Shown here: positions 59,298-60,320 of the stretch, piece after piece
How positions within the stretch are numbered: the stretch's first letter is position 1
How the letters are laid out: each line of letters opens with the position of its first letter
Source of the DNA: Escherichia coli
GTDB taxonomy: Bacteria; Pseudomonadota; Gammaproteobacteria; Enterobacterales; Enterobacteriaceae
Assembly: GCF_041886205.1 (NCBI RefSeq)
Contig: NZ_CP169029.1
Length of the DNA stretch: 64,000 nucleotides
Reading direction: 5' to 3' (one strand)
Program-made: the position numbers and the translations under genes
The notes under the pieces: generated by a model
The model's database searches: none
What the model saw: the letters and a program-made list of their open reading frames with translations, nothing else
What the model was told of the DNA's origin: nothing

Positions 59298-59827
59298 ACA
59301 CAAAAATCAGATACGGCCTGTCGGCTGCCGTTCTGGCGCTGATTGGTGCTGGCGCATCTGCTCCTCAGATACTTGACCAGTTTCTGGACGAAAAAGAAGG
59401 TAACCACACAATGGCATACCGCGATGGTTCTGGCATATGGACCATCTGTCGGGGTGCCACAGTGGTGGATGGAAAAAACGTTTTTCCCAATATGAAACTG
59501 TCGAAGGAAAAATGCGACCAGGTCAACGCCATTGAGCGTGATAAGGCGCTGGCATGGGTGGAGCGCAATATAAAAGTTCCACTGACCGAGCCACAGAAAG
59601 CCGGTATCGCGTCATTCTGTCCCTATAACATTGGCCCTGGTAAGTGTTTTCCGTCGACGTTTTATAAGCGGCTTAATGCCGGTGATCGTAAAGGCGCATG
59701 CGAGGCGATTCGCTGGTGGATAAAGGACGGTGGACGTGATTGCCGCATTCGTTCAAATAATTGTTACGGTCAGGTTATTCGTCGTGACCAGGAGAGTGCA
59801 TTAACCTGCTGGGGGATAGAACAGTGA
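59294..59827 (+). CDS. phage endolysin, GH24 lysozyme with N-terminal signal-anchor-release (SAR) segment
   Basis: 177-aa ORF; hydrophobic Gly/Ala-rich N-terminus (…LSAAVLALIGAGASA…) followed by lysozyme domain. Confidence 0.85.
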   Translation: MNTKIRYGLSAAVLALIGAGASAPQILDQFLDEKEGNHTMAYRDGSGIWTICRGATVVDGKNVFPNMKLSKEKCDQVNAIERDKALAWVERNIKVPLTEPQKAGIASFCPYNIGPGKCFPSTFYKRLNAGDRKGACEAIRWWIKDGGRDCRIRSNNCYGQVIRRDQESALTCWGIEQ

Positions 59828-60320
59828 ATCAGATATTCACGGTGATTTTGCTCGTGTTGTCAGGATTTGTCGTAGGTAATGTCTGGAGCGACAGAGGATG
59901 GCAAAAAAATGGGCGGAGCGTGATGCTGCCGAATTATCTCAAGAGGTAAATGTCCAATTTGCTGCTCGAATAATTGAACAGGGGCGAAGTATATCCCGTG
60001 ATGAGGCTGTTAAAGATGCACAACAGAAATCTGCTGAAATTTCTGCCAGGGCTGCTTATCTGTCTGATAGTGTTAACCAGTTGCGTGCCGAAGCAAAAAA
60101 ATATGCCATACGCCTTGACGCAGCGAAGCATACCGCAGATCTTGCCGCTGCCGTCAGAGGCAAAACAACCAAAACCGCCGAAGGAATGCTCACCAACATG
60201 CTCGGAGATATTGCAGCAGAAGCTCAGCTTTATGCTGAAATTGCTGACGAACGCTACATCGCAGGAGTGACTTGTCAACAGATCTATGAATCTTTAAGAG
60301 ATAAAAAGCATCAAATGTAG
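59824..60320 (+). pseudogene. Rz-like i-spanin gene, apparently frameshifted at an A7 tract
   Basis: TM-encoding N-terminal segment ([21 protein letters not shown]...) is in a different frame from the coiled-coil body (59898-60320); junction at AAAAAAA 59903-59909. Confidence 0.6.
60001..60270 (+). CDS. Rz1-like o-spanin lipoprotein embedded in the +1 frame of Rz
   Basis: Signal peptide with lipobox LTSC and Pro-rich mature region (…KQPKPPKE…); start codon choice uncertain. Confidence 0.65.

Follow-up and report, generated by a model that had tools for sequence, protein, structure and literature searches.

A frameshifted allele of the i-spanin gene rzpQ, probably an inherited one-nucleotide loss from an A8 run, in a decaying Qin-type prophage of Escherichia coli

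Among described systems, the lysis genes considered here come closest to the rzpQ (b1553) and rzoQ (b4689) pair of the Qin prophage of Escherichia coli K-12 and to the Rz/Rz1 pair of phage lambda. In two-component spanins, knockout of either subunit blocks outer-membrane disruption, and cells in which either lambda spanin gene has been knocked out are left spherical and bounded by an intact outer membrane (PMC6139136). No functional study of rzpQ/rzoQ itself was found in the searchable literature, where the pair receives incidental mentions only. In K-12, rzpQ is a continuous gene of 165 codons (498 nt, 165 aa) with a run of eight adenines (A8) at nucleotides 80-87. It begins with a GTG that overlaps the endolysin stop, has rzoQ (255 nt) embedded within it and stands in the gene order essQ-ydfR-rrrQ-rzpQ(rzoQ)-cspI-ynfQ-ynfR-ynfN-gnsB.

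The same gene order, the same overlapping GTG start and the same position and frame of rzoQ recur in the DNA that we analyzed, a stretch of 64,000 nucleotides from an E. coli genome (contig NZ_CP169029.1, assembly GCF_041886205.1) referred to throughout as the window. Megablast against complete E. coli genomes located it at the Qin-type cryptic prophage beside rspAB/ynfA, with 99.7-99.8% identity to strains JSMCR1, E3, E308 and B7A, and on sequence grounds its cassette essQ-ydfR-rrrQ-rzpQ/rzoQ is part of a Qin-type defective lambdoid prophage adjoining rspAB. The locus is a frameshifted allele of the already annotated K-12 gene pair rzpQ/rzoQ. The lysis cassette contains the following features.

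58766 to 58981, plus strand: P21-type holin of the essQ type, 71 aa, first gene of the cassette, intact (Pfam Phage_holin_2_1, E = 2e-34; PHROG holin)
58986 to 59297, plus strand: ydfR, a DUF1327 protein of 103 aa, intact (Pfam DUF1327, E = 3e-51), annotated as ydfR in relatives
59294 to 59827, plus strand: rrrQ endolysin, lysozyme family, 177 aa, intact (Pfam Phage_lysozyme, E = 6e-24; PHROG 7 endolysin)
59824 to 59949, plus strand: 5' fragment of the i-spanin gene rzpQ, 41 aa, of which 28 codons are authentic and include the transmembrane anchor and 13 are out of frame, with a stop at 59947-59949
59903 to 59909, plus strand: A7 tract where one nucleotide has been lost; intact genes have A8 here, read as Q-K-K-W (CAA AAA AAA TGG)
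59910 to 60320, plus strand: 3' body of rzpQ, covering wild-type residues 30-165 (periplasmic domain) and shifted to the -1 frame with respect to the GTG start
60016 to 60270, plus strand: rzoQ, the o-spanin, an Rz1-like lipoprotein of 84 aa in the +1 frame of the rzpQ body, intact
60095 to 60101, plus strand: second A7 tract, common to rzpQ and rzoQ, where A7 is the normal length

The window differs from K-12 in having A7 and a split rzpQ where K-12 has A8 and a continuous one, in carrying another insertion between Q and the holin gene (lipocalin, YbgA and AraC-type genes) and in another late-region deletion, which ends at lom. When the frame is restored, RzpQ of the window is identical to K-12 RzpQ at 158 of 165 residues, and RzoQ is identical at 83 of 84. 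The holin gene at 58766 to 58981 is the counterpart of the essQ coding sequence annotated in JSMCR1 (locus L007) and in a second relative, L001. Located 3' of the spanin genes is a cluster of cold-shock and small-protein genes, cspI, ymcF/ynfQ, ynfR, ynfN and gnsB (60684-61744), which is present too in the isolated phages Tritos, HannyBb and mEp460_ev081.

The resemblance to lambda is one of layout. In both, the spanin genes directly follow the endolysin gene, the i-spanin is anchored by one N-terminal transmembrane segment, and the o-spanin lipoprotein gene is wholly embedded in the +1 frame; a helical periplasmic domain may be a further common trait. In contrast to lambda, the window proteins belong to the DUF2514/PHROG 312 family, with no lambda Rz family among the profile matches, RzoQ at 84 aa is longer than lambda Rz1, and the i-spanin gene is frameshifted.

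An earlier note on this DNA had placed the membrane anchor of the i-spanin, read from GTG 59824 across the endolysin stop, and its body, running to 60320, in different frames, with the switch at AAAAAAA (59903-59909). The sequence and the list of open reading frames confirm both points. The TGA stop of rrrQ overlaps the GTG in the sequence GTGA, so that rzpQ begins 4 nt before the end of rrrQ, and the same start is annotated for rzpQ in L001, JSMCR1 and K-12. Residues 1-28 of the product read from this GTG are authentic and supply the hydrophobic N-terminus, whereas residues 29-41 are read out of frame. The highest 19-residue Kyte-Doolittle average, 2.08, falls at residues 4-22 of this product, and no second hydrophobic segment occurs in the i-spanin, where the maximum past residue 30 is 0.61; RzpQ thus has, by hydropathy, a single N-terminal transmembrane segment. 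In the frame of the body, the longest open reading frame runs from a fortuitous ATG at 59898 to 60320 and encodes 140 aa; its start lies 74 nt from the GTG, which places it in the -1 frame.

With one A added to the tract, the product has 165 aa and aligns with Pfam DUF2514 from model position 4 to 160 of 161 (E = 1e-37, 130 bits where the cut-off is 26) and with the PHROG 312 'Rz-like spanin' profile from position 18 to 172 of 173 (E = 7e-57). Because both profiles align across the junction, the two reading frames represent one gene split by a frameshift. We rejected the alternative that the 41-aa frame is spurious and the 140-aa frame the real gene, since the profiles continue through the junction and the GTG serves as the start in every relative. 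The proposal that a 1-nt indel in the tract would restore a normal Rz holds for an insertion, which gives A8 and 165 codons, and fails for a deletion: A6 was discarded as an alternative restorer on reading the frames, where it gives ATG GGC GGA GCG TGA and a stop after four codons. A single-sequence AlphaFold2 prediction of the restored RzpQ is all-helical, with helices at residues 24-52, 59-111, 117-147 and 151-164, at low confidence (mean pLDDT 57.5, pTM 0.31).

The embedded Rz1 counterpart is intact, as the earlier note had stated. rzoQ lies wholly inside rzpQ (59824-60320) with GAGG positioned 9 nt 5' of its ATG, and its translation contains a signal sequence (judged by eye) followed by the lipobox L-T-S-C. 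RzoQ matches the PHROG 11621 'Rz-like spanin' profile (E = 2e-8), its exact sequence occurs in public collections, and the arrangement of rzoQ within rzpQ is identical in K-12 and in six phages.

Alignment to related Rz genes, one of the checks that had been suggested for this locus, showed what the intact condition is. Phages mEp460_ev081, HannyBb, Tritos, PhiR42_1, 2H10 and PhiR63_1 all carry the A8 form of the gene, uninterrupted over 165 codons and with Rz1 nested in its +1 frame. In the alignments of the window to L001 and to L003 through L007, the A7 tract appears as a single gap at exactly that place, and relative to the intact L001 allele this gap is the sole nucleotide difference inside rzpQ. 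Among 606 complete E. coli genomes carrying the segment, a 92-mer with A8 is matched at 99% identity or better by 534, and the corresponding 91-mer with A7 by one, strain wlxctx60, at 100% identity; both counts refer to matches of at least 99%, and 72 of the 606 genomes are non-exact matches. The two-frame layout was found in none of K-12, the six phages, 12 A8 loci and the 534 complete genomes, all of which are single-frame. On these comparisons, the intact state of rzpQ is A8 and A7 is a derived minority allele.

We therefore read the window allele, with a probability of roughly 0.86, as an inherited, inactivating one-nucleotide loss from A8 in rzpQ of a decaying Qin-type prophage, in other words an ordinary pseudogene. 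Replication slippage would have dropped one A from the run that encodes Gln27-Lys28-Lys29 of RzpQ, and the frameshift would represent neutral decay in a prophage already devoid of terminase, head and tail genes. The condition of the prophage can be followed through these features.

47990 to 48316: HTH_Tnp_1 reading frame of an IS3-family element
48313 to 49203: rve reading frame of the same element
55231 to 55623: Q antiterminator gene
55779 to 58575: cargo of about 3 kb between Q and the holin gene, comprising a lipocalin (minus strand), a YbgA-like 2-thiouracil desulfurase/DUF1722 protein and an AraC-type regulator
62908 to 63507: Ail/Lom outer-membrane protein gene (lom)

The IS3-family element (1.3 kb, about 47936-49242) lies inside the prophage exonuclease gene and is absent at this site in JSMCR1, relative to which the window is also missing a dicB-side segment and an AbiH/hokD segment. 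Given the cargo that follows Q, transcription of the lysis cassette from the late promoter may have been lost. In lambdoid phages, the interval from the lysis cassette to lom houses the terminase, head and tail genes, and relatives homologous to the window up to 62475 still carry DUF1441 and terminase genes. In the window, homology to JSMCR1 stops at 62475, lom begins about 430 nt past the break, and no terminase, portal, head or tail gene is present between the cassette and lom, indicating that the whole packaging, head and tail region has been deleted. The junction of 62475 to lom is present also in two other A7 loci, L008 and L010. Since its morphogenesis genes are gone, the element cannot make virions, and loss of the spanin would come without obvious cost. 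The earlier suggestion that the frameshift is genuine and inactivating, and the prophage in decay, is supported by this state of the element, with its IS3-family insertion and missing morphogenesis genes, and by the recurrence of A7 in many assemblies and its linkage to a SNP, both taken up below.

Of the other explanations, one in which expression depends on slippage survives best, although we consider it improbable. Here the A7 allele would be leaky or down-tuned, and useful amounts of full-length RzpQ would be made through insertion of an A by RNA polymerase or through a -1 slip of the ribosome. The tract reads C_AAA_AAA_U in the zero frame, that is, A_AAA_AAU with a run length of 7, which is slippery in principle; GAGGA lies just 5' of it. 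In addition, no stop interrupts the -1 frame from 59880 onward or the zero frame as far as 59946, so that a -1 slip anywhere in these 67 nt would yield a near-native protein. Precedents exist at each step: single-nucleotide insertions during E. coli transcription are found chiefly in A/T runs and become exponentially more frequent as the run lengthens (Traverse & Ochman 2017, PMC5574713), frameshifted genes can be restored by slippage on A runs (Baranov et al. 2005, PMC1088944), and in E. coli unstimulated A_AAA_AAG gives -1 frameshifting above 1% (PMC10861913). Like the homopolymer-run pseudogenes of the first two studies, the window has a single-base change in a coding A run whose length is within the range of replication slippage and low-level transcriptional insertion. 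However, the documented functional cases have runs of at least 9 or are conserved across homologues, whereas the run in the window is 7 and belongs to a minority allele, and selection against slippage in bacterial genomes typically becomes evident at runs of 9 (PMC1088944).

The comparison with programmed -1 frameshifting, as in dnaX and the IS3-family transposases, points the same way. An A-rich heptamer at the frame junction and a downstream frame of -1 are common to both, but the window heptamer ends in U rather than G, and A_AAA_AAU with a run of 7 falls outside the efficient motif and length described (PMC10861913; PMC1088944). No stimulatory RNA structure was detected near the tract, the folds of 59910-59970, 59912-60000 and 59880-59960 being no better than those of shuffled sequences (z = 0.06, -0.09 and 0.38, respectively). 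Nor is there a sign of selection for the two-frame layout, which is not conserved: all isolated phages and K-12 use a plain A8 reading frame, A7 is derived, and a defective prophage would gain no obvious benefit. Of the idea of slippage-prone expression raised in the earlier note, the programmed device is unsupported, given the plain A8 gene of phages and K-12 and the missing RNA structure, while a low level of accidental restoration of RzpQ by transcriptional or ribosomal slippage at A7 is plausible.

An error of sequencing or assembly, the second possibility that had been raised, would mean that the strain is truly A8 with an intact rzpQ and that one A was dropped by the platform or the polisher. 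Undercalled homopolymers are a common artefact, a single complete RefSeq genome has the exact A7 91-mer, and some A7 assemblies are rich in indels: L009 differs from the window by five other small indels in 5.3 kb, and in L002, the locus of wlxctx60, the second tract is longer by one A. We regard L009 and L002 as doubtful carriers of A7.

The allele can be recognized in assemblies by the 140-aa product, which starts with M-A-K-K-W and is callable only from A7, the same ATG frame stopping after 8 codons when the run is A8. This exact product is present in 131 contigs and 227 index blocks of public assemblies, as against 3,699 blocks for the exact intact protein of 165 aa. Seven loci that encode it were fetched and compared with the window. 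One draft contig, L008 (GCA_036252075.1), is 100% identical to window positions 56898-63320 (6,423 nt), L010 (a Logan assembly of run DRR294271), L012 and L014 differ from the window by 1-3 substitutions and L013 by 6, and none of these five has an indel. If the contig of L008 is colinear, its first base corresponds to about position 49186, inside the right end of the IS3-family element, which fits the expectation that a short-read assembly of the window lineage would break there. A7 is rare in complete RefSeq genomes (1 of 606), so intensive sampling of a single clone may lie behind its frequency in draft assemblies.

An argument for inheritance comes from a nearby polymorphism. In a haplotype table of 21 loci, 61117T accompanies seven of the nine A7 loci and none of the 12 A8 loci, all of which have C (Fisher p = 3e-4, a value that summarises the association only, as the loci are not phylogenetically independent). 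Such linkage is the signature of an inherited mutation and is not expected of random error. Over about 32 kb, the window and JSMCR1 are separated by three indels, namely the A tract, an intergenic C/CC difference and a frameshift in rspB of JSMCR1 itself, so few that the window does not look like an assembly prone to homopolymer errors. The rspB gene of JSMCR1 (L007 position 15351) has its own 1-nt deletion and is annotated as 'frameshifted', whereas rspB of the window (44350) is intact. With identical A7 tracts in many independent assemblies free of other indels, linkage to 61117T and no excess of homopolymer indels, a sequencing error is very improbable, and A7 is, judged by its recurrence and linkage, a real and heritable allele common to the lineage marked by 61117T. 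The case illustrates that, with no recourse to reads, a linked SNP can distinguish a homopolymer allele that is real from one created by sequencing.

The A7 state appears to have more than one origin. L013, which has A7, and L020, which has A8, have 59585C, 59639A, 61117C and 62020A in common, and both adjoin a full-length terminase gene of 700 aa. Their common haplotype places the A7 of L013 on a different background from the 61117T clade, for which a second, independent slippage is the simplest reading, and by these haplotypes A7 has probably arisen at least twice. Alternatively, L013 could have received A7 on a recombination tract of at most 1.5 kb between 59640 and 61116. The gene is broken by other lesions as well: a different truncated rzpQ allele, encoding a protein of 123 aa (P0004) that starts MLKLLLEYIEQGRTIARDE, occurs on 81 public contigs with a K-12-like haplotype, indicating that rzpQ has been disrupted independently. 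Several lesions across lineages fit relaxed selection combined with a mutable run.

The variability of A runs in rzpQ also bears on two further readings. The conserved A8 run and the A7 run located 190 nt 3' of it could jointly serve as a mutational or transcriptional dimmer, by which Qin-type lysis cassettes kept by E. coli toggle between full lysis and a spanin-null state while A7 lets a trickle of full-length spanin through by slippage; were this very unlikely scheme correct, holin and endolysin would act in the spanin-null state and the outer membrane would hold. The least probable of all the explanations is a phase-variable switch, an A8/A7 contingency locus that reversibly toggles spanin function in a domesticated lysis cassette. 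In its favour, A7 occurs on at least two haplotypes (the main 61117T clade and L013, on the background of A8-bearing L020), the second A tract varies in L002 and all relatives keep the A8 tract. Against it, ordinary homopolymer mutability predicts two or three origins in thousands of genomes, no reversion from A7 to A8 was seen within the A7 clade (in the small sample of 21 loci), the A8 run is simply CAA AAA AAA with its common Lys codon, the unrelated rzpQ lesions of other lineages fit relaxed selection, and a short recombination tract could also explain L013.

Under the preferred reading of inherited loss, the consequences for the spanin pair can be followed step by step. As judged from its reading frames, rzpQ of the window is a pseudogene allele of the i-spanin family in which the anchor is no longer joined to the periplasmic domain. 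Translation from GTG 59824 ends at the stop codon 59947-59949 and gives a peptide of 41 residues, in which the membrane anchor is followed by 13 wrong ones. Initiation at ATG 59898 would be poor, as GGA abuts it directly with no spacer, and any product from that start, carrying neither an export nor an anchor signal, would presumably be cytoplasmic. RzoQ keeps its own Shine-Dalgarno sequence and reading frame and should still be translatable, but would be unable to work alone. Since both spanin subunits are required and the frame of the i-spanin is broken, the cassette is predicted to be spanin-null, and its expression in the window lineage should give rounded cells bounded by an intact outer membrane. 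Lambda Rz mutants lyse in medium without added divalent cations, and spanin loss is conditionally tolerated in the laboratory; the term 'inactivating' is therefore applied here to spanin function and not necessarily to all lysis.

For annotation, the locus should be entered as an rzpQ pseudogene disrupted by a frameshift, in which the embedded rzoQ is intact, rather than as two small hypothetical genes or as the 140-aa 'DUF2514 family protein' under which the product is listed in public databases. Beyond annotation its importance is small, as a clean example, backed by population data, of the decay of cryptic-prophage lysis genes at homopolymer runs.

In wlxctx60, the second tract is A8 (L002 positions 2302-2309) in addition to the A7 of the first, so that both spanin genes would be broken, and PGAP marks three pseudogene fragments at the spanin locus; this assembly may itself be indel-prone. 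Finally, an A7 lysis cassette one SNP from that of the window occurs in L011 (GCA_027279165.1, positions 1841-4845) in a different lambdoid context, flanked by cspB/cspF upstream and by a Nu1-type terminase gene downstream, which indicates at the level of sequence that the lysis cassette has been exchanged between prophages by recombination.
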